The notes under the pieces are model-generated. The model searched no databases and had not been told where the DNA came from. It saw nothing but the letters and a program-made list of their open reading frames with translations. This document shows positions 19,389 through 51,644 of a DNA stretch of 64,000 nucleotides, piece after piece. Within the stretch, counting starts at the first letter, position 1, and every line of letters begins with the position of its first letter. The translations under genes and the position numbers were made by a program. The DNA comes from an uncultured Methanoregulaceae archaeon. GTDB taxonomy: Archaea > Halobacteriota > Methanomicrobia > Methanomicrobiales > Methanospirillaceae. The stretch spans positions 1-64,000 of the forward strand of contig OY970343.1 of the NCBI GenBank assembly GCA_963717525.1. Reading direction: 5' to 3'.

Positions 19389-20126
19389 TCAGGCAGAGAC
19401 AATCACGTCGATAGATCGTTCACTGTTTTTCTTCCTCGCAGCTGCCTGCTCGATCCGGGCGTAATTTCTCAGGATACCGGTCAGCGTATCGTATAATTCC
19501 TGGTTCTTAGTGAGAAACAGAAACATGACCGTGTTGTCAGCGATTATAACCGGGGCAGCACCTGTTAGCGTTAAAACATCAGCAAATTTCCTTTTCGGCT
19601 CATCCGGGGCTGGCGGCCGCCGACGCTGATAGTGCTGGTAAATCATGAGAATTGATTCGTCATCGAGTTGGTCATAAAATTTTTTCAGTTCAGAAAAAGA
19701 TAGGTGTTTTTCTGTAAAATTTTTCTCCTTGATCCCCGTATCCGGATCGATAAAAATCAATGCGGCTGTGGGAAAATTTTCGTAAATACCTCCGAAATAC
19801 TCATCGCGTTTCTGTTTTGAGAAGATCTCGCTTTTTTCGATTCGTATCCGGACTTTCTTTTTATTGATATCTGTCTTGAGTTCCTTGATGTAACTTTTCA
19901 ATTCATCGTAATAGTGGTCGACTTCTTCCGTTCTCCTGAGCCGCCTGAAACAGGCAATCAGGTCGGTGTTCCGGCAACCGGGATTTCCTTTGAAATTTGG
20001 ATCATATTTTGTCAGCATGGGAACGATAACGATACGATCGATCCTGCCTCTGAATCCTTTGACGAGGGACGTGATAAGATCGTACTTAAACAGGTCCCTG
20101 GTATCGCCAAAATATTTCGCATTCAT
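19389..20126 (-). CDS. Conserved hypothetical protein (possibly methyltransferase-like fold)
   Basis: YFGDTRDLFKY N-terminus, LIFIDPDTG, MIYQH; lower GC. Confidence 0.6.
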   Translation of the reverse strand: MNAKYFGDTRDLFKYDLITSLVKGFRGRIDRIVIVPMLTKYDPNFKGNPGCRNTDLIACFRRLRRTEEVDHYYDELKSYIKELKTDINKKKVRIRIEKSEIFSKQKRDEYFGGIYENFPTAALIFIDPDTGIKEKNFTEKHLSFSELKKFYDQLDDESILMIYQHYQRRRPPAPDEPKRKFADVLTLTGAAPVIIADNTVMFLFLTKNQELYDTLTGILRNYARIEQAAARKKNSERSIDVIVSA

Positions 20127-20491
20127 CTCTCAATCCCTACATGTGGATAGAGAACGGGAGCGTAAAAAAGGTATGGTTCCGATGCCCGTTGGGTTGTGTC
20201 TGCGGTTAATGATCCGTTTTCATTTCGGTAATATCTTCGAATCAACTGCCAACGTATGGGGCATTTCAACTGATAGAATTTTTTTCGGAAGCTAGGTTTT
20301 AAAAGCAGAACGACCACCTCATTGAATCGGCGGGAACTGGGGTTCTTCTGCGGGAAATCAAACCTCCTGCTTAACGGAGTAACCAGTGCCGAATATCGTG
20401 TAGCCGCCAAACGCGAGGGAGATGCCGCGAAGAGAAAATATATATATATTCTCTAAATTAAGTATATATTTAATCTCAAAACTCTATTCAC

Positions 20492-21208
20492 ATGGTACAA
20501 GCTGTTGAGCACTGGACGGAAACGACGCATTTTGACCTTACCGATATCGCGGCGCTTCATATGGGGCTGTCCTGCACCCAGCGTGAAATCCTCTGTCGAA
20601 ATATAATGGTACCCGACCGGTGGGGTATGCTTGACAAGATACGGCATTATATGCCCCTCTGCTCTGTCTTTGCAGGTGAGCTGACACGGGATGCAATCCG
20701 CACCGTAAAAGGTGCTCCCCGTGAGACGATCGGGCTGGAGAAACTCGGTTACGCGATGCACTTCCTGCAGGATGCAGGAAATCCATGGCATGCCCGCCCA
20801 CTCCTGCCATCGTGCCAGAAAAATCACTCCGTTTATGAAGACTATGTCGCACGGAATATGAGGACGGGATTTTGCTTCCGTCACGCACTTATGAATAGAC
20901 CAGACAAAGGGATCATTCATCCCCAGTTTACGCAGCGGATCGGAGATGGCGCTGCGCACCTTGCCCGGCAGGCAGTACAACACTTCCCGTTTCTCGATGC
21001 CTGCATCCGGACCGACCCGTCGTGGCAGGAGAGCGAAGAGGTTGCGCAAGTAACCCTCTCCCTCCTGAGCGCGTGCCTGCAGATGTGCGAAACCCAGATC
21101 CATTCATTTTCAATCCGGGCGGAATCGCAGATATTACGGCCTATTCGCTTGCCGGTCGCGGTGACTTGGACATTTCTTGGATCTGATGAACGGAGACTTA
21201 CAACATGA
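20492..21208 (+). CDS. Zinc-dependent phospholipase C / P1-nuclease superfamily protein, no signal peptide
   Basis: W-x4-H at N-terminus, PD, RHY, LGYAMHFLQD..NPWH, HSVYE zinc-ligand pattern. Confidence 0.8.
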   Translation: MVQAVEHWTETTHFDLTDIAALHMGLSCTQREILCRNIMVPDRWGMLDKIRHYMPLCSVFAGELTRDAIRTVKGAPRETIGLEKLGYAMHFLQDAGNPWHARPLLPSCQKNHSVYEDYVARNMRTGFCFRHALMNRPDKGIIHPQFTQRIGDGAAHLARQAVQHFPFLDACIRTDPSWQESEEVAQVTLSLLSACLQMCETQIHSFSIRAESQILRPIRLPVAVTWTFLGSDERRLTT

Positions 21209-21250
21209 CAATCCGGTGGGCCGGTGCGTAATTACGGATAAGGATGGTTA

Positions 21251-22339
21251 TTGATGGGATCGGTATTTGTATCACCCTTGAACTGGGGGCTGGGTCATGC
21301 GTCGCGGGATGTGCCCATCATTCGCGAGCTGCTCCATCAGAGGCATGAGGTCACCGTAGGTGCCAGCGGAAACGCGCTCGCATTCCTGAAAAAAGAGTGC
21401 CCTGAATGCAGGTTTATCCAGTTCGAGGATTACCCGATTCCCCACAATAACGGGAGGATCTTTTTACCGACTTATACGGCGTATATCCCCACTCTTATCG
21501 ATGCCTACCTTTCGGAACGTAAAAAAGCAGTGAAAATATTCTCACAAAACACATTTGATCTCATCATCAGTGATTCCCGTTCAGGTGTCTATTCAGAAAA
21601 GGTACCCTCAATCCAGATAACACACCAGCTGCATCAGAGCCTGCCGCTGATTGCGTGGCCGCTCGAACTGCTTGGGGTTTACATACAGGCTGACGCTTTT
21701 TCCAAGTTTGCCAGGATCGTAGTGCCCGATAATCCACCGGAACGGGGAGCGCTCGCGGGAAAACTCTCCCGCTCCCTTGTTCCTGCACTTCGTGAGCAGA
21801 TCTACTATTGCGGGATAGTAGCAAGTGTCAGAAAAGAGCCAGTGAAAAGGGATATCGATTACCTGATCGTCATCTCGGGGATGGAACCCCAGCGTACAGC
21901 GCTTGAAAAGATCCTCATGCGGCAGATCCCGCACCTACCGGGAAGGAAAGTAGTCCTGCTCGGAAAGCCTGCCGCCGACCAGATCAGGACACTGGAGGAT
22001 GGGACCGTGATCTACTCTTTTGTCTCCAGTGAGGAAAAATCCCTGCTCATTTCACGGGCGCGGTTTATTATCTGTCGTTCCGGGTATACCACGATGATGG
22101 ATATCGCTGAGGCGGGGCTGAAAAGCGGGCTCTTTATCCCGACACCGGGCCAATGGGAACAGGAGTATCTCTCCCGGTATTATGAGGACGAGGGGTGGTT
22201 TTTCTCCCGGAGCCAGTATGGTCTCCGGCTCTCCCGGGACATCCCCCTGGCAGCCGGTTTCTCCGGGTTTCCCGCTATGACCACAACCGAAGAGAACGTC
22301 CGCCGGCTGTACCGGAAGGTGTTATCAGAATATCTCTGA
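21251..22339 (+). CDS. GT-B glycosyltransferase (GT28-like / MJ1255-type)
   Basis: PLNWGLGHASR, DLIISD, ICRSGYTT, IPTPGQWEQ. Confidence 0.88.
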   Translation: MMGSVFVSPLNWGLGHASRDVPIIRELLHQRHEVTVGASGNALAFLKKECPECRFIQFEDYPIPHNNGRIFLPTYTAYIPTLIDAYLSERKKAVKIFSQNTFDLIISDSRSGVYSEKVPSIQITHQLHQSLPLIAWPLELLGVYIQADAFSKFARIVVPDNPPERGALAGKLSRSLVPALREQIYYCGIVASVRKEPVKRDIDYLIVISGMEPQRTALEKILMRQIPHLPGRKVVLLGKPAADQIRTLEDGTVIYSFVSSEEKSLLISRARFIICRSGYTTMMDIAEAGLKSGLFIPTPGQWEQEYLSRYYEDEGWFFSRSQYGLRLSRDIPLAAGFSGFPAMTTTEENVRRLYRKVLSEYL

Positions 22340-22355
22340 CAGGGGTGTAACAAGG

Positions 22356-22649
22356 ATGCAGACAAGTTTCCATGAAAGCAATCTTCAGGACCTGAACAGT
22401 GGAGAGCCGGTGGCTCTTGTCTCTCACACGATGGACAAACTCGCTCTTATTTGGAGCATCGGCATCGGCATCGGGTACGCGTTTCTGGTGTCATTTATCT
22501 GCTGGATCGGGTACAGGTGTTTTCTCATCTATAATGCATACCAGGCAGGAAATTTTCCGTTCATAGTTACGGAAATCAAGATGGACCTGCTTATCAGTGC
22601 CATTTATTTTGGTATTGCGATAATCCTCCGGAAAAAAGGATATATCTGA
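22356..22649 (+). CDS. Small two-helix membrane protein
   Basis: Two hydrophobic segments; 16 bp after the glycosyltransferase. Confidence 0.6.
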   Translation: MQTSFHESNLQDLNSGEPVALVSHTMDKLALIWSIGIGIGYAFLVSFICWIGYRCFLIYNAYQAGNFPFIVTEIKMDLLISAIYFGIAIILRKKGYI

Positions 22650-22975
22650 AACCAGGGAAGCGGGAAAGGTTCAGCAGTCATACGTTTCTCAACTCTCATC
22701 GGCCAATCGTCCGGTCTTTTGCATGATATTCCCGATATATAATGTTCAGGGGGGGGGGAAGTAAAAATATATATTTTTCCAACAAAACTATATAGTTAAG
22801 AGATAATATATTGGGTAGGAAGAGTGGAGCGTGTTTACTACTTCCTGGAGCGATTCCCGTGATCGGTTCATACAGAATCCACAATGAGCAGATAAAAAAA
22901 GTTGAGCAGAGCTTGAAAGCACCCTACCTGCGTCATCGAGTTGACCCTTGCATTCACGAAAATTCGGGCATAGTG

Positions 22976-23194
22976 ATGATGCAGATAAATCGACCGGAAA
23001 ATATCGCCCCTGTCCAGCGGCAAAAATCTTGTAACTATGATAGGGATCTGCGACAGGATCCCCCCAATCTGCCTCCGTCCCCATGTTCTGCAACGAGGTG
23101 TCTCCGATGCAACACCCGAATACACGAGATGGATTATCTCTATACGAAAAAGACCGGCTTATGTATTCCCTGCTGGGAAGAACAGGTGACATGA
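22976..23194 (+). CDS. Small zinc-finger protein
   Basis: CLRC...CIPC; start chosen at ATG 22976. Confidence 0.5.
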   Translation: MMQINRPENIAPVQRQKSCNYDRDLRQDPPNLPPSPCSATRCLRCNTRIHEMDYLYTKKTGLCIPCWEEQVT

Positions 23195-23195
23195 C

Positions 23196-23378
23196 ATGGC
23201 GATAAAGAAAAAGAAAACAAAAAAAGCCTCAGCACCGGAAAAATACATCTTCCCCCAATCGTCAGTTACACCGAACCGGCCATGGCTTCCCAATCGTGCC
23301 GGCGTCGGCAAATCCGTCGGGGCTCTGCTGGGCCGGGTGAAATCATATATTATACCTGGCAAAACTGCAGAAGCATGA
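23196..23378 (+). CDS. Small basic hypothetical protein
   Basis: Starts 1 bp after the upstream stop; AGGTGA upstream. Confidence 0.45.
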   Translation: MAIKKKKTKKASAPEKYIFPQSSVTPNRPWLPNRAGVGKSVGALLGRVKSYIIPGKTAEA

Positions 23379-23528: not shown

Positions 23529-24563
23529 TTATTTCCCGGCAGGTTTCCGGTGGAGTGACTGATTTTCTTCGACGATGTAGTTGATCACGTTCTCGGAAAT
23601 ATCCGCGGCGTACTCTCCAGACCTGCGGATGCTCTCCGAGATGTAGCTGATCGAGATTGCCGCCATAGTCTCCTGCCTGAACGCCATGTTGCTGATATCG
23701 CCACAGATATGCTCCAGCGCCGAGACCGACTCGATGGTCTTGTGGGCCTCACGGATATCGGCATTGAAAAACGAGATAATACTCTTGTCAAAGATCTGCA
23801 TGGACAGGACGCTCGCCTTCTTTAACGCTGCCACGATCTTCGGGTCGAGGTCGGCATCCAGCACCGGCTGGGCATTCTCGGCAATCCGTACGGCGTGATC
23901 GCCGATTCGTTCGATGATCTTGCTGATCAGATGGTAGTACATGGCCATGCCGACCGAGACCTCCATCTTCCGGGAGAGGGAGGGGTTCTGCATGATCATG
24001 TTGGTCTGGCGGGCGATCAGCCAGTTGAGCCGGTCCGAGTCCATGTCCCGGTTGATCACGTCGGCGGCGAGGGTCTGGTTGTGCGTCTCGAGCGATGCGA
24101 TGGCATCCTCATGCATGTTCCTGACAATGACAAACATTCTCTTGATGGTGTTGTCAAACGGCATCTCGGCCGGGTTGAGGAGGTCTTTTATCAGGATGAG
24201 CGTATCGGTCTCCTCGACAACCTCCTGCCCGATGGTCATCTGGGTGAAGTCCCGGACAACGGTTCGGACAAACGGCGGAAACCGCTGCTTCGAACTGATA
24301 CGGATCGTCGTAAACCCGGTGATGTAAGTTCCGATCAGGATCCGGAAGAGAAATGAGGGGTCGGTGATATGCCCGATATCGACCTCTTTGACCCGCTGGA
24401 TTGGATCATCGGTGGTTTTTTTCGTGACGAGCAACGTGCCGTCAGGCTGTGCAATCATCCCGACGGGGTCATTCTTCTTGATTCGCAATTCCTGGACCCA
24501 GTCTTTGGGCAGCGTAACAACAAACGATGACCCCCCGGTCATCTGTACCCGGCGTATTTCCAT
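23529..24563 (-). CDS. phoU: Archaeal phosphate uptake regulator (AbrB-like DNA-binding domain plus two PhoU domains)
   Basis: RRVQMTGGSSFVVTLPKDW; ERIGDHA; RRSGEYAADISE. Confidence 0.93.
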   Translation of the reverse strand: MEIRRVQMTGGSSFVVTLPKDWVQELRIKKNDPVGMIAQPDGTLLVTKKTTDDPIQRVKEVDIGHITDPSFLFRILIGTYITGFTTIRISSKQRFPPFVRTVVRDFTQMTIGQEVVEETDTLILIKDLLNPAEMPFDNTIKRMFVIVRNMHEDAIASLETHNQTLAADVINRDMDSDRLNWLIARQTNMIMQNPSLSRKMEVSVGMAMYYHLISKIIERIGDHAVRIAENAQPVLDADLDPKIVAALKKASVLSMQIFDKSIISFFNADIREAHKTIESVSALEHICGDISNMAFRQETMAAISISYISESIRRSGEYAADISENVINYIVEENQSLHRKPAGK

Positions 24564-24724
24564 CTTGTTTTCACCTCACGAATAGAGTGATATGATAAAT
24601 ATACTTGACTCTGTTCTCTTTTTTCTTGTATATATATATGCATAGTTTATGTCGAAAAACTGTATATGAACTTGGGATAATATTCTGATTAAGTATCAAA
24701 AGCGGTGAATACACAGGAGCAGAT

Positions 24725-25225
24725 ATGAGAAGCGATACAGTGATTTTTATCTGCTCTTTCAATTCTGTCAGATCGCCCATCGCAGAAGGGTTTCTCCGGC
24801 AGAGAGAGCGGGGGCGGTATACAGTTTGTTCTGCTGGTATCGCACCAATACGGGTACGCCCCAGCGCTGTCAGGGTCATGCAGGAGATGAAGATCGATAT
24901 TTCGGGCCATATCCCTGCTTCGTTGTACCATTACCGGACCCAGGATTTCGATTACGTTGTTACGCTCTGCGATAATGTCCGCGCAGCAGCCGAAGAAGTG
25001 TTACCGGGCGGGGACAGGTTTTTTCACAGGAACTTTGTCAGCCCCCAGGAAATCGGGAAAACACCGGAGGAAACCCTCGCGGACTACCGGACATTGCGGG
25101 ATGAGATCGCGTTATGGTTGGACGAGATTTTTCCGGCAGCAACGCAAGATCCAGATAAAAACAACGGGAAAAAGAATATGGATTGCACCGCAACTCAGCA
25201 AGCGTCCGGGCAAGGACAATCTTAG
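24725..25225 (+). CDS. arsC: LMW-PTP fold arsenate reductase-like protein
   Basis: FICSFNSVRS P-loop, SAG, DYVVTLCD. Confidence 0.75.
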   Translation: MRSDTVIFICSFNSVRSPIAEGFLRQRERGRYTVCSAGIAPIRVRPSAVRVMQEMKIDISGHIPASLYHYRTQDFDYVVTLCDNVRAAAEEVLPGGDRFFHRNFVSPQEIGKTPEETLADYRTLRDEIALWLDEIFPAATQDPDKNNGKKNMDCTATQQASGQGQS

Positions 25226-25266
25226 ATGAATACTGGAATGGACGGGACCGCAGAAAGGAGACATGC

Positions 25267-25461
25267 ATGACCTATACATCGTCATCGAATATGATCGATC
25301 TGGATGGTCCGCTTATCCAGATATTTCTGGGATTTCTGCTCGCTATCATCGGATGTGTACTCATGATCAGCGCACCGGGATACTCGGAGGTATCCTATCT
25401 CCTGTTCCTAATTGCCGGTGTCTTGGTTGCCCTCTCCATGATCTTCCTTACCGGGGGCTGA
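25267..25461 (+). CDS. Small two-helix membrane protein
   Basis: Hydrophobic; AGGAG upstream. Confidence 0.55.
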   Translation: MTYTSSSNMIDLDGPLIQIFLGFLLAIIGCVLMISAPGYSEVSYLLFLIAGVLVALSMIFLTGG

Positions 25462-25591
25462 AACTGTGGTGGAATAGAGGACATAAAATAAATATATACT
25501 AATGCGTGATAACTATTTAGATTACATATGACTGGACTCCCCTTGCGATCAATTCATTCCGATCGCTGAGATCGATGCCGATGAGGAAACT

Positions 25592-26782: not shown

Positions 26783-27691
26783 ATGACTATGGCAGCAGAA
26801 ACGGACAGTTTTGAAAAGTTTTTTGAGATGTACAAGCGTTTCTGCTACACGTTTGGCCGTTCCTTTGATCGCACCCCCAACCGCGATATTATCAAACTGA
26901 TTTACCAGGCCGATCTCGAAATGACGCCAGGAATGTTCACGTCCCTGTGGATCGTAACGACCATTCTTGTCGGCTTTGTGATGATAATGATCGCATCCAT
27001 CCTTTTCCTGCTCCCCCAAAGCCCCTTTGCGATACCCAATCCCGCACCCTTTATCCTGCTCTTCGCGCTGATCGGTTCTGCTGCGATTGCGATTGGCTTT
27101 CCTTTTTACCTGCAAAACCAGATCGAGAACAAGAAACGGGACATAGACACCCAGATTCCCTATGCCCTTGCATTCATGTCGATCCTTGCCAGTTCCGGTG
27201 CAACACCGCTGGATATTATCAGGAGGATTGCACGGGAAGAGTACGGACAGATCTCCAACGAGTTTCGCAAGGTACTGTTCAGGGTAGATGTCCTTGGAGA
27301 GGATGTGGTCACTGCGATGAACGGCCTGGTACAGAATACGCCATCTGACATGTTCCGGGATATCTGCATCGATATGACCAACATCATCTATGGTGGAGGC
27401 GGACTGAAATCCTATCTTGAGACCAAGTCAAAAGAGCTCATGGCCATCCGGCGCCAGACCTATAAGGAATTCGTGGAGTCCCTTGCCGTATTCGGCGAAG
27501 GTTACCTTGGAGGAGTGGTGATGACAATCACCCTCGCTGTGCTGGGTGTTGTTATCTCCGGTGCACTGGGCATCCAGCTGGGGCCGTTTTCCGCGCATGA
27601 TATGTTCAACTACCTGATCTACCTGCTGATCCCGCTCATCAACGTGGTATTCCTTCAGATGCTGGCTGTGAAATATTCGACAACTCCCTGA
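26783..27691 (+). CDS. Type IV pilus platform protein (T2SSF, TadB/TadC-like)
   Basis: IDTQIPYALAFMSILASSG, YGQISNEF, TPSDMFR. Confidence 0.92.
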   Translation: MTMAAETDSFEKFFEMYKRFCYTFGRSFDRTPNRDIIKLIYQADLEMTPGMFTSLWIVTTILVGFVMIMIASILFLLPQSPFAIPNPAPFILLFALIGSAAIAIGFPFYLQNQIENKKRDIDTQIPYALAFMSILASSGATPLDIIRRIAREEYGQISNEFRKVLFRVDVLGEDVVTAMNGLVQNTPSDMFRDICIDMTNIIYGGGGLKSYLETKSKELMAIRRQTYKEFVESLAVFGEGYLGGVVMTITLAVLGVVISGALGIQLGPFSAHDMFNYLIYLLIPLINVVFLQMLAVKYSTTP

Positions 27692-27697
27692 TCCGCT

Positions 27698-29065
27698 ATG
27701 CAAACACCCGCCAAGGACACCCCGGTTCATAAAAAGATGGACGAGCTCCACGAGATTATCGAGCGGATATGGATCAAGTACAACCCACCGCGGGAACTTT
27801 TCACCATTGCCATTCCGGTCGCGGTTGCACTCCTGGTTGTGCTCGCTGCATTTTTAATGGGATATACAATCCATACAACGGAAAAGCAGCAGGCTACAAC
27901 CACCAGTGCCAAAGAACAGGCGCTGCAGGCATACCTTGCGCAGGTGAATGCCGAGAACGGCAATGCCACCGGAACAGTCGCTTCCGCTATACCATCAGCA
28001 CCTGCCGCACCGACCATGGGGCTTGACGAGGTGATGGTCTTTGCCCTGATCATAGCCATCCTCCCGTACTCCATTGACATAACGCTCCAGAAACGGTCGA
28101 CCCGGAAAAAAGAGGAACTCTATACCGAGTTCCTGTTTAAGCTCTCTGAGCTGATGCGGGGGGGGCTCGATCCCATCAAGGCAGTAAAAGAACTCTCCAA
28201 GACCGATCTTGGCGTTCTCACCCCACATATCCGCGTCGCAGCGACCTCCATGACATTCGGGAAGTCGTTTGAGGAAGCGATGAAAGCGATGTCTGCTTCA
28301 CTCCATTCGGAACTGATCACGCGGTACACCATGCTCGTCGTCCAGGCCTCGTATTCAGGGGGATCGGTTGCCGATCTTATCCTCAAGGCATCCGAGGACA
28401 TGCGGAGTATCATCTCGATCGAGCGGGAGAAAGAGGGGAATCTTCACCAGTACGTAATGATCTTCTACTTTGCCCAGGCAATCATCATTTTTATCGTCTA
28501 TATTCTGACAACAAGCCTCCTCCCGTTCGTCCAGCAGCTGGGCGCCACGCAGATGTTTGGCAAAACGGATATCGGCGATATCGATTTTGCCCGGGGATTC
28601 TTCCATATGATCATCCTCAACTCCATATTCGGGGGCCTGATCATCGGGAAGATCAGCGAAGGCGAGGCGCGGTACGGGCTCAAGCACGTGGTTGTGCTCG
28701 TGGCCGTAGGTTACATTGCGTGTGCCCTCTTCATCCTTCCTCCGCCGGTCACACAGATCGGGCCAAAGGTCAATATTACGGTGGTATCTGGAGATCAACA
28801 GGAAGGAGTTCAATCTTTGCCGCTCGTAAATCCAATCGTTTTCCAACTTACAGACACTGCCGGTAATCCCGTGAATAGTACTTCTGTTACATTCAACATA
28901 GTGCCGGGAGGGTTGGTAAATCCGGTTTCAGATATCTCGAATAATAATGGCCAAGTCCAGACGAAAGTAATCTTGGGAAATGTTTCGGGAACCTACTTTA
29001 TAACAGCAACGGCAAATGGGAACTCTGCAAAGGCGACTGCGAACGCAGCATCCGGAGGAGGATAA
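27698..29065 (+). CDS. Type IV pilus platform protein (T2SSF) with C-terminal Ig-like domain
   Basis: FLFKLSELMRGG, GLIIGKISEG..GLKH; C-terminal VVSGDQQ..TDTAGNPV..TATA beta domain. Confidence 0.9.
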   Translation: MQTPAKDTPVHKKMDELHEIIERIWIKYNPPRELFTIAIPVAVALLVVLAAFLMGYTIHTTEKQQATTTSAKEQALQAYLAQVNAENGNATGTVASAIPSAPAAPTMGLDEVMVFALIIAILPYSIDITLQKRSTRKKEELYTEFLFKLSELMRGGLDPIKAVKELSKTDLGVLTPHIRVAATSMTFGKSFEEAMKAMSASLHSELITRYTMLVVQASYSGGSVADLILKASEDMRSIISIEREKEGNLHQYVMIFYFAQAIIIFIVYILTTSLLPFVQQLGATQMFGKTDIGDIDFARGFFHMIILNSIFGGLIIGKISEGEARYGLKHVVVLVAVGYIACALFILPPPVTQIGPKVNITVVSGDQQEGVQSLPLVNPIVFQLTDTAGNPVNSTSVTFNIVPGGLVNPVSDISNNNGQVQTKVILGNVSGTYFITATANGNSAKATANAASGGG

Positions 29066-39866: not shown

Positions 39867-41015
39867 GTGAAAACAGCAATGTACGCAAACATGAAACGCA
39901 TGAACAATGAGATGGCAGTCTCACCGATTGTTGCGACGCTCGTCCTTATCGTCGTCGCCGTCATCGGTGCAGTTGCCGTAGGTACCATTATGGGTACCTT
40001 CTCAACCCAAGTATCGAAACAGGCATCCGCTTCTCAGGCCGCATCTGCATCATCAACTGAGATTCTCATCGCCGGCTCGACCACGCTCCTCCCGGCTGAG
40101 CTTAACCTCCAGACCGACTACCAGAAGGCCAACCCCGGCTACCAGCTGAACGTCCAGGGTGGCGGCTCGGGCGCCGGTGTGGCATCAGTAGCAGAGGGAA
40201 TCTCTGACATCGGTGCAGCATCCTCGGCAAGCACGATTACAGGCGCTCAGACGGCAAACCCGAACAACCCTGCCTACCAGAACCTCTACTACACCATGAT
40301 CGGTGGCCGTGGCGTCGTCTTCATTCAGGATGCAAGCATGATAGCAGACCCGAGTAATGTTGTTAGCACTGCAGACCTGAACGCTGCATACCTCGATGCA
40401 AGCGGCAACGGCGGCAAGACCACTGCTGTAACTACTAACCTCACCCACATCGGCACGACAATGGAACAGCGCGAAGCAGGTTCCGGCACGATGTCAACCG
40501 CATTCGGCTGGATTGGCGGCAGCGCAAAGGGTAACACATCCACCGGTTACAACAACCTTCCGACCCAGAACGGAAACGCAGCAATGCTCGCAGCAGTCCA
40601 GGCAGGAACCTCGACTGCCCCGGTCATCGGCTTCGTTGACGCAGGCTATGCATTCACCGGCTCAGTGACCAGCAACGTCACCGCATCGGGTATCTCGGTT
40701 ATGGGCGTTGTAGATGGAACTCAGACAGCAGCATATGTTCCGACCCACGCCAACATCAAGGCAGCACTCAAGGACTGGGTCAAGGGCAACTCTCAGGGAA
40801 CCAACTACCCCCAGAAGCTCACCGGCGGTCTCTACTGGATCACCGCGGGAACTGTACCCACCCAGTCGGTCAACGGTATTATCACAGCCCCAGGTACCAG
40901 CGCAGCCAGCTCAGTTGTTACCAACCTGATCACCTTCGCCCAGTCCCCGGGTGAGGCAACCGCGTTCAACAACGCCGGCATGTACTCGCTCTACGACTTT
41001 GCACCGACCAGCTAA
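39867..41015 (+). CDS. pstS: Phosphate-binding protein PstS with N-terminal type IV pilin (class III) signal
   Basis: NNEMA|VSPIVATLVLIVVAVIGAVAV; IAGSTT, GGGSGAG, DIGAAS, REAGSGT; precedes pstC-pstA; start may be ATG 39879 or 39891. Confidence 0.9.
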   Translation: MKTAMYANMKRMNNEMAVSPIVATLVLIVVAVIGAVAVGTIMGTFSTQVSKQASASQAASASSTEILIAGSTTLLPAELNLQTDYQKANPGYQLNVQGGGSGAGVASVAEGISDIGAASSASTITGAQTANPNNPAYQNLYYTMIGGRGVVFIQDASMIADPSNVVSTADLNAAYLDASGNGGKTTAVTTNLTHIGTTMEQREAGSGTMSTAFGWIGGSAKGNTSTGYNNLPTQNGNAAMLAAVQAGTSTAPVIGFVDAGYAFTGSVTSNVTASGISVMGVVDGTQTAAYVPTHANIKAALKDWVKGNSQGTNYPQKLTGGLYWITAGTVPTQSVNGIITAPGTSAASSVVTNLITFAQSPGEATAFNNAGMYSLYDFAPTS

Positions 41016-41034
41016 GCTAACAACTCAAACCACA

Positions 41035-41048
41035 TTTTTTTCTTTTTT
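41035..41048 (+). terminator. T-rich archaeal terminator between pstS and pstC
   Basis: TTTTTTTCTTTTTT right after the pstS stop. Confidence 0.6.
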
Positions 41049-41051
41049 ACA

Positions 41052-41972
41052 ATGAACGAAAAGACCGATCTCCACGAAGTACTCTTTCTTTCCTGTGCCG
41101 TGGTGACCGCGTTAAGTGTCATCGTAATCATCGGGTACATTATTTACGCTGCCTCGCCGGTTCTCGAGCGCGAGGGGCTCGGTTTTATCTTCGGATCGAC
41201 GTGGGACTATACATCTCACCAGTTTGGTATCTGGTCGTTTATCGTCGCAACTCTGATGGTAACCGTCGCCACTATTGTACTCGCTGTCCCGCTGGGCCTT
41301 GCAACCGCACTCTTTCTCTCGGAATGGGCCCCGCCGTGGCTCGACCAAGTGCTCAGTACGCTCATCGAACTGCTGGTGGGAATACCGTCTGTCGTATACG
41401 GTATCTTCGGCTTTTTTGTCCTGCGGAGTTATTTCAATGATTTCATCAACCCGTTCATAGGAAATACACTTGGTTTCATTCCCCTCTTCAGGTATGACAA
41501 TAACAACGGGATAGGCTTCCCGCTGGCAGCCACTGTCCTTGCCATCATGATCCTGCCGACCATCGTCGCCCTCTCGCGGGAGGCGATGCGCGGGGTGCCC
41601 GTGGAGCTGCGTGAAGGGTCGGCTGCGCTTGGATCGACGCAGTGGGAGACCATCCGGCACCTTGTTCTTCCGGCATCCCTCTCCGGGATCATCACCGGCC
41701 TGATCCTGGGCATCATGCGTGCGATGGGAGAGACCATGGCAGTCGCGATGCTTGTAGGTAATGTGGGCGCCACCCCGGCATCGTTTTTCAATCTGGGTGA
41801 ACCGATGACCGCCAAAATTCTCCTGGATATCGGATATTATATCGTAGAGCCCGAAGGCCGGAGCGCGCTCTTTGCCATCGGTGCTGTCCTTATGGTCATG
41901 GAGATAGGGTTTGTGATCGCGATCCATATCATCAGTGACCGGCTGAAAAAACGAATGGAAGGCGCCACGTGA
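41052..41972 (+). CDS. pstC: Phosphate ABC permease PstC
   Basis: ELLVGIPSVVYG, LAIMILPT, REGSAALG, RAMGETMAV. Confidence 0.95.
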   Translation: MNEKTDLHEVLFLSCAVVTALSVIVIIGYIIYAASPVLEREGLGFIFGSTWDYTSHQFGIWSFIVATLMVTVATIVLAVPLGLATALFLSEWAPPWLDQVLSTLIELLVGIPSVVYGIFGFFVLRSYFNDFINPFIGNTLGFIPLFRYDNNNGIGFPLAATVLAIMILPTIVALSREAMRGVPVELREGSAALGSTQWETIRHLVLPASLSGIITGLILGIMRAMGETMAVAMLVGNVGATPASFFNLGEPMTAKILLDIGYYIVEPEGRSALFAIGAVLMVMEIGFVIAIHIISDRLKKRMEGAT

Positions 41973-44640
41973 ACCTCCGGAATCTCAAAGGGACAATCAT
42001 GATGGCAATCTGCGGAGCTGCCGCGCTCTTTGCCGCAGCCATGCTTCTCTATATCCTCGTGGTTATCTTCCTGAAAGGAGTGGCATCCCTGAACCCGCAT
42101 TTCATCCTGTTCTCTGAGATCAATACCGGGTTGGGGCTCGGGACCGGGGTCGGGAACGCCATTGCCGGCACTATTCTTCTCGCGGTCATATCCACTATCC
42201 TTGCAATCCCCTTGGGAGTGGGGACTGCAATCTATCTCAGGAAATATGCTTCCGACAACCAGTTAACCCGGTTCCTGCGGCTGATGATCGAGGTTCTCTC
42301 AGGCACCCCTTCGATCGTACTGGGGATTTTCGGCGTCGCCGTCCTTGTTATCTATCTCAAGCCCATTACCGGGGGAGAATCCCTCATCGCAGGAGCCATT
42401 GCACTTGGCGTCCTGATCATCCCGGTGATCGAACGCTCAACAGAGGAGGCACTTTCGCGCGTGCCCTGCGAACTGGAAGAGGGCAGCTATGCACTCGGCG
42501 CAACCAAATGGCTAACAGTCCGGAATATCGTCATTCCTTATGCCCTTTCGGGTATCATCGTCGGGGCCATCCTTGGATTCGGCAGGGCTGCGGAAGAATC
42601 GGCCGTCGTTCTCCTGACCGCGGGATATTCCCAGTACATGCCGCAATTCAGGATCGCAGTCAACCCGAACTTTTTACTCGGGATTAAGATATATCCGCTC
42701 AATGATCTCGTCGGATCACTACCGGTATTCCTGTACACATCCTATGAAAATTCCAATGTCTTTCCCGTATCCTCCATTTTTGCTGCCGGCTTTATCCTCA
42801 TCGTCATCGTATTGTTCATCAATCTCTCGGCAAAGGCCATCCTTTTCTATGCCACAGCAAAGACACATGGGCATCAAGGTGACCTTCTGTCTTCGTTTTG
42901 CGGATCTATTTCAGACCGGTTCCTCGGGAAACAACCCAAAGCATTACCTTCATATTCCGATGTAATAGATCCTGCACCCCCGGATGAAAAAAACACGAAA
43001 AAAGAAGATCCTGTTAGTGCCTCAATGCCTCCTCAAATTCGCCCGGTAGACCTTTCGTGGATAGACACAGATCCGTTAATTGATGAACCATCTTCGGGGG
43101 AGACAGAAACTCCCGAGCCCGCCCCACCTGCTGCCGAACCCCCAAAACCAGCCCCCAGGCCAACAAGAATAACGATCCGCTCGGTTGGGACCGGCATTGT
43201 ACGGCTCATTAACGCAATCCGCGAAAAAGTTCGCATGGTGGTACATGACAACCTGCAAAAGAAAACACCTGTAGATGCAGCTAAGGTTCGTGGCACTGCG
43301 GATCGTGCTGGATCTCTTCGGAAGACACAGTCGTTCAGTCCCTGGATGATAATAGGCCCAGTCCGCTCCTTCCTTCTTACGTTTGCCCCATTCGCACTGG
43401 TCGCAGTAATCCTGCTGGTTCTCACCATCATGCTGCCCCCCCTCTCACCAGTTGGATCGAATGGGCCGGCCTGCTGACCGTTCCCATCATGGCCCTCATC
43501 CTGTGTTTGATCGGGACGGTAAGTGCCCTTTTTCTGGTGCGGAACAGTACGCTCTTCCTGCTTCGGCACCAGAAGGGCCGAATGGGGAACCGGCGTGCCG
43601 AATTCGCCGGGATCGCGGTGGGATTCTGCATGGTTCTTATCGGGGCATTCATCTTTTCCGCCCATATCTTTTCACCCGTTCCATCACTCCAGTCCCCGGG
43701 TTCAGAAGCACCCGCAGAAAATGGAATATTCAGTTACTTCACACCGTCAGGAAACGGTGGGATATCTGCAATCATGTCATTGATACAGGACAACAGCCTG
43801 TTAGGCTTCCTCCACGGATCAGGATCTGCAGCCGCCAACTCCACAGCCTCATCCAACCGGGGCGCACAACTGGCAGCGTTTCTGGCTTCAGAAGAAACAC
43901 CGGCCGAAGTAACCCCCCAGAGCACCCTGGCAGCACTCCAGCCCTCTCCTGCTCCGTCTTCCTCTGCCCAAGCCATCTCCTCAGTCCCTCCCTCCGTTCC
44001 GGTCAAAAACGCACTCGATCTCGGCGAGTCCTATTGGTACGGCGATAACAGCCGCCCATGCCTTGCCACCGTCTACAATGTAACCGTCCTCCCGTTCTAT
44101 TTCTACTGGGATATGGACTGGAACCGGTTCGTTCAGGTAACACCGGTTTCGAGCGGCGACACGTTCCTTGTTGTTTTCATCCGCATCGAAGACACCGGAA
44201 ATATGAGTGCCATCGTGCCGCCGGCAACCAGTTTTGTCGTCACCTATAACGGCCAAACCTATTCCAATGAGCCGTATTTCGATCAGTCAGTCCTTGACCC
44301 GGACGAAATTACTTATTATACCGCAAATTTCAACGCCCTGCCCTACCAGTGGATCCGGGAGATCGGGCAGCAGAAGCGGGATTATGCCTTCCTGACCGGC
44401 TACAATGTCTTCGGGCAGAACCAGACCGTGATCTCTAACTATACCAACAGCGCAAACGCCCCCCCGACACCGCCCGATACGAATGGCCAGGGGTATTTCA
44501 TCAAGCCCGGGCGCAGCAACGCCATCGACGGCTACCTTATCTACGAAGTCCCCGATGCTGTTGCAGCGGATCTCCGGGACACGTATGTCCAGGTCTCCTT
44601 CAACAGTTTCAGCGCGACGCAATGGAGGCTGGGAAAATGA
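41969..44640 (+). CDS. pstA: Phosphate ABC permease PstA with long C-terminal extension (one frameshift at ~43463)
   Basis: LSGTPSIVLG, EEGSYALGA, GRAAEESA; one extra G in AATGGGCCGGC joins ORFs 41969..43477 and 43489..44640. Confidence 0.8.
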
Positions 44641-47987: not shown

Positions 47988-49319
47988 ATGTATAAACTGG
48001 GAACGGTTATCTGTCTCTTCGTCGTTATGCTGGTCTGGGCATGCGGCTGTACTTCCGTTCCCGCGTCAGGTACCGCACAGGCGGGACCGTCTGTGGCGAC
48101 ACCCACGCTGCCGGCGATGTATGTTGCCGGGGAAACGACACTCACGGCAGGGAGTGCCACGATCACATCGACGCCGATACCGGCGAACGCAACAGCCGCA
48201 AATATCGTTGGCGCACAAGTGAACACAACCCTCACGGAAGTTACGATAGCCTGCACGGGGCAAACCTGTACCAGCGGCACAACCAATAGTACCATATCCG
48301 GTTCCAGCACTACCACGGTGAGTGCCCCGGTGAGCGCCATTGCCGCCAACGTGACCATGGCATATGTCAAACAAAACCCGGACGTTGCAATCCAGTTTAC
48401 CGACTCCTCTTCAAACACCCCTCCGTATTCATGGATGTGGAGCTGGCGGCCGGCGGCAAACCTGACCTACGAGAGTGACCCGAGCATCGTTCTCGTCTTT
48501 AACCAGTATGGGAACTACATGGTAACCCGGAGTGTTTCAAACAGCGTGGGAACCTCAAGTTCATCAACAAATGTCTCCGTCTGTCCCCTTGTAGCCTCCT
48601 TTACCACAAACCAGACCACCGGCCCGGTACCACTCTCCGTCAGGTTCACCGACACTTCGACCGATCAGCCCGTCTCTTGGCTCTGGAACTTCGGCGATGG
48701 GAGTGCCTCGACCTTACAGAACCCGGTGCATACGTTTACCGTATCGGGTACGTTTACCGTGAGACTTGATGCAACAAACAGCCTGGGCTCCTGCTGGAAT
48801 ACGACCGGGATCTCGGTATCATCACTGGCAGCATCTTTTACCCAGAATCAGACTACCGGCCTTGTCCCGCTCGCTGTCCAGTTCACCGACACTTCGACCG
48901 ATCAGCCCGTCTCCTGGCTCTGGAACTTCGGTGATGGGAGTGCCTCGACCTTACAGAACCCGGTGCACACATATACGACTGCAGGTGTATACCTGGTCAA
49001 CCTCAGCGCATCCAACGGGTATGACGGCATGATGAGTGCGCAGCCAGTAAAGATCACGATCTGGTCCCTTCCCACCGCTTCTTTCACAGCAAGCCCGGTA
49101 ACCGGGATGCCGGGAACCTCCGTGCTTTTCAGTGACCAGAGCACCGGCTTTCCCTCCCCAGCATTCTGGTATTGGGACTTTGGCGACGGGTACACCAGCA
49201 GCCAGCAGAATCCCTCGCACCAGTATGTTAATGCCGGGACATACAATGTCAGCCATTCAGCAACAAATGCGCAGGGCATCACGTGGCTGAACAAGACCGC
49301 TTACATCACCATATCATGA
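47988..49319 (+). CDS. Exported protein with four PKD domains
   Basis: Signal ending ACGC; repeated W(N/D)FGDG..QNPxH; near-identical duplication at ~48645-48730 and ~48882-48967. Confidence 0.9.
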   Translation: MYKLGTVICLFVVMLVWACGCTSVPASGTAQAGPSVATPTLPAMYVAGETTLTAGSATITSTPIPANATAANIVGAQVNTTLTEVTIACTGQTCTSGTTNSTISGSSTTTVSAPVSAIAANVTMAYVKQNPDVAIQFTDSSSNTPPYSWMWSWRPAANLTYESDPSIVLVFNQYGNYMVTRSVSNSVGTSSSSTNVSVCPLVASFTTNQTTGPVPLSVRFTDTSTDQPVSWLWNFGDGSASTLQNPVHTFTVSGTFTVRLDATNSLGSCWNTTGISVSSLAASFTQNQTTGLVPLAVQFTDTSTDQPVSWLWNFGDGSASTLQNPVHTYTTAGVYLVNLSASNGYDGMMSAQPVKITIWSLPTASFTASPVTGMPGTSVLFSDQSTGFPSPAFWYWDFGDGYTSSQQNPSHQYVNAGTYNVSHSATNAQGITWLNKTAYITIS

Positions 49320-51490
49320 CACCCAAACCCTTGTCAGGCCGGCTTTCATCATTGTTCAGCACCGGAGGAGAGCCAGACGCTTCCCGACCGGACACTGATG
49401 CAGATGATACGCTATCCTCTGACGGCGTGCAAAAAGAAGATCACGGAACCGACGAACCTGACCTTGGAGACAAAGGGATTGGCCGCCAGCCGGAAAACCG
49501 GCGACCCGGTTCACGGATACAGAAGTTTTTCCTGTACTTCATTGAACCGGAACTGAAGCCGGAACAGCTACCTGATGTCTCCCGTACACAGGTAAAGAAA
49601 CCACGGGAAAAAAAGCCTTCCGTTCCTGTCAAAGAGAGGATCAGGGAACAGCTGGCCTCCCTGAGAAAATTGGGCCTGAAAATATCCCTCTATTTCATAG
49701 AACCCGTTGAAGAGGAGACAACGGGCATACAGGCCGAAGAGGTGCAGGCACTTCCGGAAACTGCAGCTGAAACCCTCCCTTCCATACCGGATCAGGCCAA
49801 CCTTGCGCTGTCTGTTACCGATGTGGTTCAGGCACCTGACAAACAGGTTCCCCCTCCCTCATTCATGCAGAGAATCCGGTCACTTTTGGCGTCCCCGGAA
49901 CAGAAGGAGATCCAGACGCTCGATTTCGATCCGGGTGTCCTTGACACCCCCTCCCTTGAAGGATCGCTGCGCGATGTCAATATCACCTACCTGATCGATC
50001 CCCCTTACCAATACGTCCATATCGAGTACAACAAAAAAGAGGGGTCTTTGATATATGATGTAGTCGAGCCGCAGCTCTCCGAGGATGAGAAGGTCGCTCT
50101 CGATATTATCGAGCGGGCCTTTGAGAAACTGGTGAGCACCAACCTCGAAATTATTGAAGGTGATCGGCGGACTGAATACCTCCGGGAACGGTTCTACTCA
50201 CTGGTCAACATCTTCGGGCTCAAACTCTCGGAACACCAGAAAGAGAGGATGTTTTTTACCCTCAAAAGGCAGTATCTCGGCTACAGCCGCATCGACACCC
50301 TGATGAAGGACAAGTATATCGAGGATATCAGCTGCAACGGTTCGGATATCTTCCTGTACGTCCAGCACCGTATCTATGGCTCAATCCGTACCAATGTGAA
50401 ATTCGGGGAGGTCGAGCTCAACAACTTCGTCCTGAAGCTGGCACAAGTCGGCGGCAGGCATATCTCGCTCCTCCAGCCCATCCGTGACGTTTCGCTGCCG
50501 GACGGGAGCCGGGGGAACCTGACCCTCGGCGGAGAGGTAACCAGAAAAGGATCGACATTTACCATCCGTAAATTCCGTGCAAACCCCATCTCGCCCATCG
50601 AAATGATGGACTACCACTCTGTCGATGCGATGGAGCTTGCATACCTATGGATCCTGATGGAATACAAGCGCTCGATCCTCGTCTCAGGGGGGACGGCGAC
50701 CGGGAAGACCACGTTTTTAAACGTGTTGTGCAGTTTCATTCCTCCCGAGTACAAGATCGTCTCCATCGAGGACACAGCAGAACTTAACCTAATGCACCCT
50801 AACTGGATTCAGTCCATCACCCGGGCCGGGTTCGGTAGTACCAGCGGTGGAGAGTCTGTATCTGGGTTGAGTGGTGTGTCGGCAAAAACCCCCGGGGATA
50901 TCTCGCTCTACGACCTGCTCGTCGCGGCACTGCGACAGCGCCCCGAGTTCATCATCGTAGGGGAGGTGCGGGGGAGCGAAGCGTTTACGCTCTTCCAGGC
51001 AATTGCCGTAGGGCATGCGGCTCTTGGGACTATCCACGCCGGTTCCATGGACGAGCTTCTCGCCCGCGTGGAGTCTAACCCTATGAATGTCCCACGAAGC
51101 CTCTTCTCCAACCTCGATGTGGTGATCTTTCCCATGCATATCAAGAAAGGGGAGCGGAGCATGCGGCGTTTGTCAAATATCATCGAGATGCTGGAACTCG
51201 ACCGGGATTCAGGAGATCTTATCACGAATACGGCTTTCAAATGGCTCCCTGATGTCGATGAGTTCCAGTTCCAGGGCCGGAGTTTCCTCTTTGACAAGAT
51301 CCGGGACACCCACGGGGTAAGTAAAGATCTCCTCAACCAGGAGCTCAAAGACCGGACAGCATTCCTGCGTGGCCTGCAGAAAGCAGGGATCCGGGAGTAT
51401 AATGCGGTGACTGAACAGATCCGGGCATATTACCGGGATAAACCGGCTGTGATGAAGCAGGTCGAGGGTTCATCGGAAATTGTAGGGTAG
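49316..51490 (+). CDS. Type II/IV secretion (pilus assembly) ATPase, ArlI/TadA-like
   Basis: GGTATGKT Walker A, SIEDTAEL, IIVGEVRG, GH...TIHA; ATGA overlap with the PKD gene. Confidence 0.95.
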   Translation: MTPKPLSGRLSSLFSTGGEPDASRPDTDADDTLSSDGVQKEDHGTDEPDLGDKGIGRQPENRRPGSRIQKFFLYFIEPELKPEQLPDVSRTQVKKPREKKPSVPVKERIREQLASLRKLGLKISLYFIEPVEEETTGIQAEEVQALPETAAETLPSIPDQANLALSVTDVVQAPDKQVPPPSFMQRIRSLLASPEQKEIQTLDFDPGVLDTPSLEGSLRDVNITYLIDPPYQYVHIEYNKKEGSLIYDVVEPQLSEDEKVALDIIERAFEKLVSTNLEIIEGDRRTEYLRERFYSLVNIFGLKLSEHQKERMFFTLKRQYLGYSRIDTLMKDKYIEDISCNGSDIFLYVQHRIYGSIRTNVKFGEVELNNFVLKLAQVGGRHISLLQPIRDVSLPDGSRGNLTLGGEVTRKGSTFTIRKFRANPISPIEMMDYHSVDAMELAYLWILMEYKRSILVSGGTATGKTTFLNVLCSFIPPEYKIVSIEDTAELNLMHPNWIQSITRAGFGSTSGGESVSGLSGVSAKTPGDISLYDLLVAALRQRPEFIIVGEVRGSEAFTLFQAIAVGHAALGTIHAGSMDELLARVESNPMNVPRSLFSNLDVVIFPMHIKKGERSMRRLSNIIEMLELDRDSGDLITNTAFKWLPDVDEFQFQGRSFLFDKIRDTHGVSKDLLNQELKDRTAFLRGLQKAGIREYNAVTEQIRAYYRDKPAVMKQVEGSSEIVG

Positions 51491-51644
51491 TGCCCTTTTT
51501 TGGGACTCGTTTTCAATTTTTTCTCGCCTTGCTGAAAGAACGGTTCATGCTCTCAAAAAGGAGAGAAGAAGTTTTGCCCTTCTTTTCCCGTGTGGCTTGA
51601 CCGATACGCAACAGGTGCAATCCCTTATGTACGATCTTAATTAA

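Follow-up and report, generated by a model that had tools for sequence, protein, structure and literature searches.

A candidate phosphate-linked cassette for lipid head-group removal and glycosylation in Methanoregulaceae, pairing a Zn-PLC-fold protein with a GT-B glycosyltransferase

The first 64 kb of the single-contig, 2.29-Mb genome of an uncultured Methanoregulaceae archaeon (contig OY970343.1; this stretch is referred to below as the window) contain a cassette of genes encoding a protein with the fold of zinc-dependent phospholipases C (Zn-PLC), a GT-B glycosyltransferase (GT) and a small two-helix membrane protein. Our analysis points to a conserved, operon-like unit that may serve as a phosphate-linked module, removing phospho head groups from isoprenoid membrane lipids and glycosylating the product. 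We hold this reading tentatively, with a probability of roughly 45%. We infer the mechanism from the fold of the first protein, the linkage of the genes, the displacement of the PLC gene by a PHP phosphoesterase gene in related loci, the membrane partner and UbiA link of the GT, and the analogy to the bacterial PlcP-Agt system, and the same holds for the particulars of the reading, namely archaeol or caldarchaeol as the lipid, the reaction order, the small protein's role in bringing the GT to the membrane and control by inorganic phosphate (Pi). A sequence-only reading of the region had proposed that the PLC-like protein and the GT form a pair that converts phospholipids to glycolipids next to phoU. 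We modify this proposal in that the module comprises three to four genes, and in that its tie to phosphate consists of a pst/phoU neighbourhood seen in about half of the lineages described below.

The three genes of the cassette lie on the forward strand, with the layout that had been read from the sequence: the gene of the Zn-PLC-fold protein at 20492..21208 (238 amino acids, aa), that of the GT1/GT28-like GT at 21251..22339 (362 aa from a TTG, although the start is more likely the ATG at 21254, which gives the 361 aa seen in homologues) and that of the membrane protein at 22356..22649 (97 aa, two predicted hydrophobic helices). The PLC and GT genes are separated by 42-45 bp, and the GT and small genes by 16 bp. 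A conserved, AT-rich promoter (20428..20491, + strand) ends directly before the ATG of the first gene and contains two GTATATAT-type boxes 22 bp apart as well as a AACTCTATT element immediately 5' of the ATG. Since no Shine-Dalgarno (SD) site is visible before this ATG, the mRNA of the cassette is probably leaderless or nearly so. SD-like sites do precede the later genes (GGATGG before the GT gene and GGGGTG before the 97-aa gene), and such a pattern is common where a leaderless first gene heads an operon, suggesting an operon-like unit. Approximately 62 nt of the promoter are kept in all 7 genomes first compared, in which the sequence farther upstream is unrelated, and the same element was found in 4 further genomes and in every metagenome locus examined, relocated cassettes included. 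The cassette thus moves together with its own promoter.

Strong orthologues of the PLC gene (E ~1e-134 or lower) were identified in 7 of the 49 genomes of the genus, including that of the window, whereas the 252 remaining genomes searched within the order had none; the weaker matches there are long forms (see below). A further 4 loci came from a genome scan and 26 from a metagenome scan, all from the same Methanoregulaceae family. Among the sequences searched, the cassette thus appears to be an accessory module restricted to Methanoregulaceae. The 37 loci were grouped into 26 clusters at ≥ 95% PLC identity, 19 of which have at least 2.4 kb of downstream sequence and are referred to as lineages. 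The PLC, GT and 97-aa genes occur together in 18 of these 19 lineages (which are related, so that counts of them overstate independence) as well as in 6 of 6 further genomes, which goes beyond chance. In 7 of the 19 lineages, the PLC gene is directly followed by an opposite-strand gene for an EamA transporter of the drug/metabolite transporter (DMT) type, and in 6 of the 18 linked lineages this gene sits between the PLC and GT genes. EamA is probably ancestral to the module, because its carriers include the most divergent PLC lineages; in its fuller form, the module includes the EamA gene. A 320-aa open reading frame (ORF) between the PLC and GT genes of locus L036 was considered and rejected, as it is the antisense frame of a real EamA gene. 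Two loci show split genes (the GT in L059 and the PLC in L067), which may be assembly errors; the cluster mates of L059 have an intact GT.

The PLC-fold protein belongs to a family that has remained without annotation. A word-indexed search returned 32 homologues at 58-100% identity, all unnamed or 'hypothetical', with Methanoregula as the source organism wherever one is named, and the protein does not reach the curated threshold of PF00882 or PF02265. When a 20-sequence profile was searched with HMMER against 1.84 billion cluster representatives, 59 proteins were found at E ≤ 0.001 and 4 at E ≤ 1e-30, which indicates that the family is small. Nine positions are invariant in the alignment of 20 homologues and unchanged across sequences down to 57% identity: W8, H13, D42, H52, H90, D94, H100, H112 and E116. 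We take this pattern (Trp, 5 His, 2 Asp, Glu/Asp) to be the ligand list of the three-metal site of Zn-PLCs and P1 nuclease, and Glu as the last ligand (E116) presumably represents the PLC state, P1 nuclease having Asp at this place. In a profile search of PDB sequences, the block from H90 to E116 aligned, weakly (E 0.015-0.07), to the ligand block of alpha-toxin and Bacillus cereus PLC; the four N-terminal ligand positions were assigned by pattern and not residue by residue.

An AlphaFold model of the protein is all-helical, with a predicted local distance difference test (pLDDT) of 78.5 and a predicted template modelling score (pTM) of 0.81. Foldseek listed Listeria PlcB, B. cereus PLC and alpha-toxin N-domains first, followed by S1/P1 nucleases (probability 1.00, template modelling (TM) score 0.55-0.64). 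In VIA-align comparisons, Z-scores of 18.6-20.0 were obtained against Zn-PLCs (190-198 residues, root-mean-square deviation 2.5-3.1, identity 12-17%), as compared to 14.2-15.7 against S1/P1 nucleases and 5.3 against the next fold. The structural alignment starts with residue 9 of the model opposite chain residue 2 of alpha-toxin and P1. Because its Z-scores to PLCs exceed those to S1/P1 nucleases, the model places the protein on the PLC side of the superfamily. The sequence-only assignment to the Zn-PLC/P1 family is therefore right: it agrees with the fold match, the nine invariant ligand positions, the PDB profile block and the nearest ESM Atlas clusters, which carry PF00882.

Furthermore, the absence of a signal peptide noted earlier was confirmed, as the N-terminus has no hydrophobic stretch, and the protein is predicted to be cytoplasmic. 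Its last ~25 residues (about 215-236) form a strongly conserved hydrophobic/aromatic tail, modelled at low confidence, which is a possible membrane-interface or partner-binding element. A complex prediction for the GT and the PLC-fold protein, run without controls, gave a score of 0.00, which speaks neither for nor against an interaction. Sub-threshold matches to PF00882 and PF02265 were seen in 4 and 1, respectively, of the 34 distant relatives scanned. Some of the distant relatives (P0036-P0046 and P0064) are long forms of ~320 aa that begin with a signal-like segment and have ~100 additional residues ahead of the Trp; one of the long relatives is a fusion with PKD and CBM96 domains. ORFs of long-form length also turn up among the genome matches in several families of the order, and these proteins could be phospholipases or nucleases that methanogens export. 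The two most distant cytoplasmic relatives, P0033 and P0034, were not found in the genome or metagenome contig scans.

The model of the GT (pLDDT 88.2) has the GT-B fold named in the sequence-only reading, with two Rossmann-like domains of which the C-terminal one holds the nucleotide-sugar site. Its structural neighbours are GT1 UDP-glycosyltransferases, including sterol/steroid glucosyltransferases, at Z 22-25 and MurG at Z 20.3, in alignments spanning 291-338 residues; Z-scores against PimA and the glycolipid synthase MGD1 are 17.5 and 16.7. Matches of the window GT to PF13528 and PF04101 are sub-threshold, and many of its close homologues carry PF13528. Its sequence similarity to MJ1255/VC2487 (TIGR00661) and PF13528 is distant, and membership of the MJ1255/VC2487 family was rejected, the score being 30.1 bits versus a cut-off of 195.9 (28.6 bits in the genome search); another gene of the same genome fits TIGR00661 better, at 138 bits. 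The GT family is large, with at least 4041 matches among the 8000 candidates scored, and homologues of the GT are found in Methanoregulaceae, with source names that also include Methanothrix and Methanolinea. Within the order, the GT family was detected in 54 of 301 genomes, nearly all from one family (50 of 120). The genome of the window encodes a second copy at 958592-959674 that is 46% identical to the window GT, and all 7 carriers of the PLC gene likewise combine a linked GT of 79-100% identity with another GT of 46-53%. The window GT is thus a specialised paralogue.

The small gene belongs with the GT, because a two-helix gene also lies directly 3' of the GT gene in 37 of the 49 GT loci without PLC link. 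The encoded proteins have 72-100 aa and share a G-N-F/Y motif between the helices; the 97-aa protein, which has this motif too, is the conserved downstream partner of this GT family.

Further evidence for a coupling of phosphoester hydrolysis to the GT comes from a maximum-likelihood tree of 58 GTs, from which the split GT of L059 was left out. The 9 PLC-linked GTs form one clade (support 100/100), and their sister clade (99/96) consists of 2 GTs from two genomes of another genus (L049 and L103), where a same-strand gene upstream of the GT encodes a PHP phosphoesterase (234 aa, PF02811 and PF13263). The PHP version is also accompanied by EamA, which is 49% identical to that of the PLC version but lies on the other side of the phosphoesterase gene. 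The Zn-PLC and PHP folds both carry three-metal sites. These loci are suggestive of a separate recruitment or a displacement, by which two unrelated metal phosphoesterases came to be combined with one EamA/GT/small-protein core, and the exchange is our strongest argument that phosphoester hydrolysis is coupled to the GT.

Loci of the second large GT clade often encode a sequence-divergent UbiA-family prenyltransferase, whose gene adjoins the GT gene upstream in 18 of the 49 PLC-unlinked loci. This link points to an isoprenoid lipid as acceptor of the GT family, not necessarily archaeol. The UbiA paralogue, of ~285 aa, is encoded head to head with the pair of GT and small membrane gene in L053, L054, L055 and 15 further loci, and the set has the appearance of a Methanoregulaceae module, as yet unstudied, for a glycosylated prenyl lipid. 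By eye, the promoters of the PHP-GT, UbiA-GT and second-GT-copy loci have no similarity to that of the cassette.

The link to phosphate rests on neighbouring genes. Tail to tail with the cassette, the window encodes an AbrB/SpoVT-PhoU fusion protein, a candidate phosphate-responsive regulator (23529..24563, - strand; PF01895 79 bits, PF04014 40.4 bits). The distance from its gene to the end of the small gene is 879 bp, and to that of the GT gene 1189 bp, so that the 'just over 1 kb' given in the sequence-only reading was fair. The window copy also adjoins a gene for a low-molecular-weight (LMW) phosphatase/ArsC-like protein. A second AbrB-PhoU copy, 97% identical at the protein level, is encoded at 230457-231488 of the same genome, divergent from a canonical pstS-pstC-pstA-pstB-phoU operon, and the two copies have ~125 nt of promoter sequence in common. 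There are three PhoU-domain genes in the 2.29 Mb of this genome, and we estimate that chance alone would place a locus no more than 5 kb from such a gene in ~1% of cases.

Across lineages, a PhoU-domain gene was found in the flank of the cassette in 10 of 19, in three arrangements. In arrangement A, that of the window, a convergent AbrB-PhoU gene lies downstream, and in L111 this gene is divergent from pstS. In arrangement B (L113/L115), which a single inversion might connect with arrangement A, pstA-pstC-pstS on one strand are followed by AbrB-phoU, PLC, EamA, GT and the small membrane gene. In arrangement C (L112 and L120/L121), the cassette is followed by convergent genes for P-II and a classical PhoU. 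Two of the three arrangements thus adjoin pstS or pstSCA, so that the conserved linkage to phoU/pst, proposed as a check in the sequence-only reading, is borne out in part, a PhoU gene being absent from the flank in the rest of the lineages. A P-II (GlnB-like) gene adjoins the cassette in three lineages (L060 5351-5689 (-), L112 8218-8559 (-) and L120 7111-7458 (-)), in two of them together with a classical PhoU gene.

Other phosphate-related genes of the window are those for SixA and the LMW phosphatase/ArsC-like protein and a second pstS-like/pstC/pstA set (39.9-43.5 kb). The latter is part of an atypical phosphate-transporter-like set at 39867-44640 (+), in which a weakly matching PstS-like binding protein (42.7 bits versus a cut-off of 206.6) is followed by PstC, a 502-aa PstA with a long C-terminal extension and, at the expected place of pstB, a 383-aa ORF with no family match.

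The promoter region of the window phoU gene (24564..24690, - strand), which is homologous to the promoter of the pst-linked copy, has three elements in common with the cassette promoter: TATATATA, an AAGTATAT..TTTATC box and, close to the presumed start, the 9-mer ACTCTATTC. The resemblance is weak to moderate, and we regard it as a weak hint. No phosphate-related genes were found behind other genomic ACTCTATTC sites, and by eye no motif is shared with the upstream regions of the pstS-like, SixA, LMW-phosphatase and other neighbouring genes. A composite TATA-box/CTCTATTC pattern had three hits in the genome; this regular expression was written after both promoters had been seen and is therefore not unbiased, in contrast to the ranking of upstream regions given below. 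The third match, at 25470-25500 (-), is antisense to the 3' end of a small membrane ORF (25183-25461) and is followed by a frame of no more than 14 codons; it may serve as the promoter of an antisense or small RNA.

Taken as a mechanism, the module could work as follows. At the inner membrane face, the cytoplasmic Zn-PLC-fold enzyme would cut either the glycerol-O-P bond of archaetidyl lipids or the monoester of archaetidic acid, leaving a lipid alcohol and a phospho-head group or Pi. The GT-B enzyme, held at the membrane by its two-helix partner, would then move a sugar from a nucleotide sugar to the lipid alcohol. A tie to the phosphate-stress system through AbrB-PhoU/pst would give the module a role in sparing or recovering phosphorus. 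For the phospholipid-to-glycolipid proposal as originally made, the fold, the predicted location, the gene linkage and the PHP/UbiA context speak in favour, and the convergent phoU, a GT nearest to GT1 enzymes and the non-canonical UbiA neighbours speak against.

Several observations weigh against this reading. Regarding the first enzyme, the 238-aa protein matches no Pfam and no NCBIfam family at E ≤ 0.1, and only 1 of 5 AlphaFold models is confident. The invariant Trp is residue 8 as encoded, behind a variable leader of 6-10 residues. In characterised family members, Trp is the first mature residue, and its free alpha-amino group binds metal; such a ligand would exist here only if the leader were removed, and two distant cytoplasmic relatives, including P0033, have no Trp at this place. 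Regarding the GT, the nearest structures are GT1 enzymes, whose acceptors are soluble or small and lipophilic, and not known glycolipid synthases, and one lineage (L063/L128) has PLC and EamA only and no GT. As the UbiA neighbours score 49-53 bits versus cut-offs of 269-296 for digeranylgeranylglyceryl phosphate (DGGGP) synthases and are thus not canonical, the lipid of the GT family may not be archaeol. Regarding phosphate, 9 of the 19 lineages have no PhoU gene in the flank, and the window phoU is convergent with the cassette and not co-transcribed. Moreover, in an unbiased ranking of 2169 upstream regions against the cassette promoter, the phoU promoter takes ranks 5-8 (tied; z ~3.5), and a genome search with the full-length 64-nt promoter profile (nhmmer) gave only the cassette as significant and did not recover the phoU promoter.

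The main rival is a constitutive biosynthetic module, in which the phosphoesterase would remove the phosphate from a freshly synthesised prenyl-lipid phosphate (either archaetidic acid/DGGGP or whatever a UbiA-type paralogue makes) and the GT would make a specialised glycolipid or glycosylated isoprenoid, with no special role of phosphate. It would account for the UbiA-type prenyltransferase linked to the GT family in 18 of 49 loci, for two different folds in the phosphoesterase slot and for the lineages without a PhoU neighbour, and a 2022 review, in its available passages, places the elimination of phosphate during glycolipid synthesis, stating that the head group is 'likely eliminated' and naming no enzyme (PMC9385802); this statement counts in favour of the phosphate-linked reading as well. 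However, the adjacency to pst/phoU recurs in three arrangements, and the cassette is accessory (7 of 49 genomes) and additional to a second GT copy in all 7 carriers, which fits a conditional function better than a core one. We therefore consider a constitutive role unlikely, although less so than the readings that follow.

A P1-type nuclease, that is, a nucleic-acid or nucleotide phosphodiesterase or 3'-nucleotidase that scavenges, for example, phosphate from RNA and is near the GT through co-regulation or history, appears improbable to us. S1/P1 nucleases share the fold (Z 14-16), one distant relative has the weak PF02265 match mentioned above, and a pho-linked nuclease would also be sensible. 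Nevertheless, the structure and the aligned ligand block are closer to PLCs, an unrestrained single-strand nuclease would be hazardous in the cytoplasm, and both the occurrence of the trio in 18 of 19 lineages and the second type of phosphoesterase before the sister GTs argue for a pathway shared with the GT. Similarly, we give little credence to a role in envelope glycan synthesis, with a MurG-like GT acting on a polyprenyl-phosphate-linked sugar or glycan, a phosphoesterase trimming or releasing a phosphodiester-linked group and EamA moving a sugar or nucleotide-sugar derivative. In favour of it, the GT resembles MurG in structure, EamA/DMT is present in 7 of 19 lineages, and the UbiA paralogues match models of decaprenyl-phosphate phosphoribosyltransferase at 27-34 bits; yet every model match of these paralogues is far below cut-off, the cassette has no oligosaccharyltransferase, flippase or further GT genes, and a linkage to pst/phoU would be unexpected for envelope glycans. 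That the PLC-fold protein is no hydrolase at all, acting as a metal- or lipid-binding accessory or regulatory subunit whose N-terminal Trp ligand is not free, would suit the internal Trp8, the lack of a curated-model match and the distant cytoplasmic relatives without Trp, but is highly improbable given eight side-chain ligands plus Trp that are invariant down to 57% identity, as is typical of an active metal centre, and a PHP hydrolase taking the same slot in the sister clade.

Returning to the phosphate-linked lipid module, its closest counterpart is the bacterial PlcP-Agt lipid-renovation operon, known from Sinorhizobium meliloti, SAR11, Phaeobacter and Pseudomonas according to the available passages of PMC4796936, PMC8231724 and PMC8528852; for work on it, PMC4302986 cites Zavaleta-Pastor 2010 in the part available. 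In both cases, the gene of an intracellular phosphoesterase lies directly beside that of a GT, with a tie to a phosphate-stress system that in the cassette consists of gene neighbourhood in about half of the lineages, and the proposed chemistry is the same, the head group being removed and the lipid alcohol then glycosylated. The likeness holds for the co-oriented genes with a gap of 42-45 bp in the window and for the linkage in 18 of 19 lineages. However, PlcP is, as we understand it, a calcineurin-like metallophosphoesterase, whereas the cassette protein has the all-helical Zn-PLC/P1 fold and matched no metallophosphoesterase family, and Agt is presumably a GT4 enzyme, whereas the cassette GT is GT1/GT28-like. 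The cassette would, in addition, act on ether isoprenoids on glycerol-1-phosphate, its regulator would be AbrB-PhoU and not PhoB, and it has extra partners in the two-helix membrane protein and EamA. We therefore view the cassette as analogous to PlcP-Agt and not as a member of that system.

With secreted Zn-PLCs (B. cereus PC-PLC, 1ah7; Listeria PlcB, 8cqm; the N-domain of clostridial alpha-toxin), the cassette protein shares the fold and the pattern of metal ligands. It differs from them in having no PF00882 match, signal peptide or recognisable pro-peptide cleavage site, in its internal Trp, in having just a short conserved hydrophobic tail instead of a C-terminal membrane-binding domain, and in being an archaeal protein of predicted cytoplasmic location that is encoded in an operon with a GT. 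S1/P1 nucleases (1ak0, 5fba, plant bifunctional nucleases and SmNuc1) have the same superfamily fold at lower Z than the PLCs, and the N-terminal Trp-to-His spacing of the cassette protein is short, as in P1; the protein differs from the nucleases in Glu as its last ligand, and known nucleases are secreted and glycosylated. As for the GT, archaeol:UDP-glucose glucosyltransferase activities were reportedly found in Methanothermobacter by Morii et al. in 2007. This activity, the addition of a sugar to a dephosphorylated diether lipid, is the step proposed here for the cassette GT. In their available passages, the reviews PMC4244643 and PMC9385802 assign neither a gene to it nor a source of the free archaeol.

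Archaeal lipid glycosylation is counted among the steps 'not well understood' in a 2014 review (PMC4244643), and in a 2025 co-culture study two annotated glycosyltransferases of M. maripaludis are only suggested, from their up-regulation (PMC12777485). In the literature searched, mostly outside subscription journals, we found no archaeal phospholipase C or lipid-renovation genes, and nothing on the GT family under MJ1255/PF13528, monoglucosylarchaeol, archaeal glycolipid synthases or Methanoregula lipids. The premise of the sequence-only reading that archaea have been reported to contain more glycolipid under phosphorus limitation could not be confirmed from the passages available: a nutrient study of M. 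thermautotrophicus reports lipid salt forms under K/P limitation and cites work on Thermococcus in which phosphorus accumulated in polar lipids under P limitation.

The cassette offers, in a peat-soil methanogen, three to four concrete candidate genes for head-group removal and lipid glycosylation. It would bear on how methanogens of bog and soil cope with scarce phosphorus, on the reading of glycolipid-to-phospholipid ratios of archaeal intact polar lipids as environmental proxies, and on the repeated rise of a phosphoesterase plus glycosyltransferase logic from unrelated folds. Our data lend partial support, strengthened by the comparative evidence, to viewing the module as functionally analogous to lipid renovation but constructed from a cytoplasmic, divergent branch of the Zn-PLC fold. 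A bolder version, which we consider doubtful, would make this the first genetically defined archaeal system for converting phospholipids to glycolipids under phosphate stress, controlled by AbrB-PhoU and built at least twice, with Zn-PLC and with PHP, on a core of EamA, GT-B and two-helix protein, the PLC-fold enzyme being the missing head-group-removing activity on glycerol-1-phosphate ether lipids. Among the DNA runs that contain the stretch, those not flagged as its possible source are from bog and soil metagenomes.

The upstream flanks of the cassette differ in nearly every genome; in the window, a 245-aa ORF (19389-20126, -) without significant family match and an overlapping 95-aa ORF (20123-20410, -) are divergent from it, and of the other loci only L124, the closest one from the metagenomes, has kept the two. 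Between the cassette and phoU lies a 127-aa ORF (22811-23194, +) that has no family match and carries a C-terminal zinc-ribbon-like CxxC...CxxC motif, directly followed by a Lys-rich 60-aa ORF (23196-23378, +). Conserved versions of the 127-aa ORF (48-91% identity, with higher values on the + frame) occur in 10 other loci, each with the convergent-phoU arrangement, and the sequence upstream of it (22767-22805) is the best non-self match to the cassette promoter profile, albeit not a significant one (E 2.3). Finally, archaeal genes resembling those of type IV pili or archaella flank the phosphate-related region at 26783-29065 and 49283-52809, and encode two T2SSF-domain membrane proteins, a PilB-like ATPase, a pilin-like protein and PKD-domain proteins.

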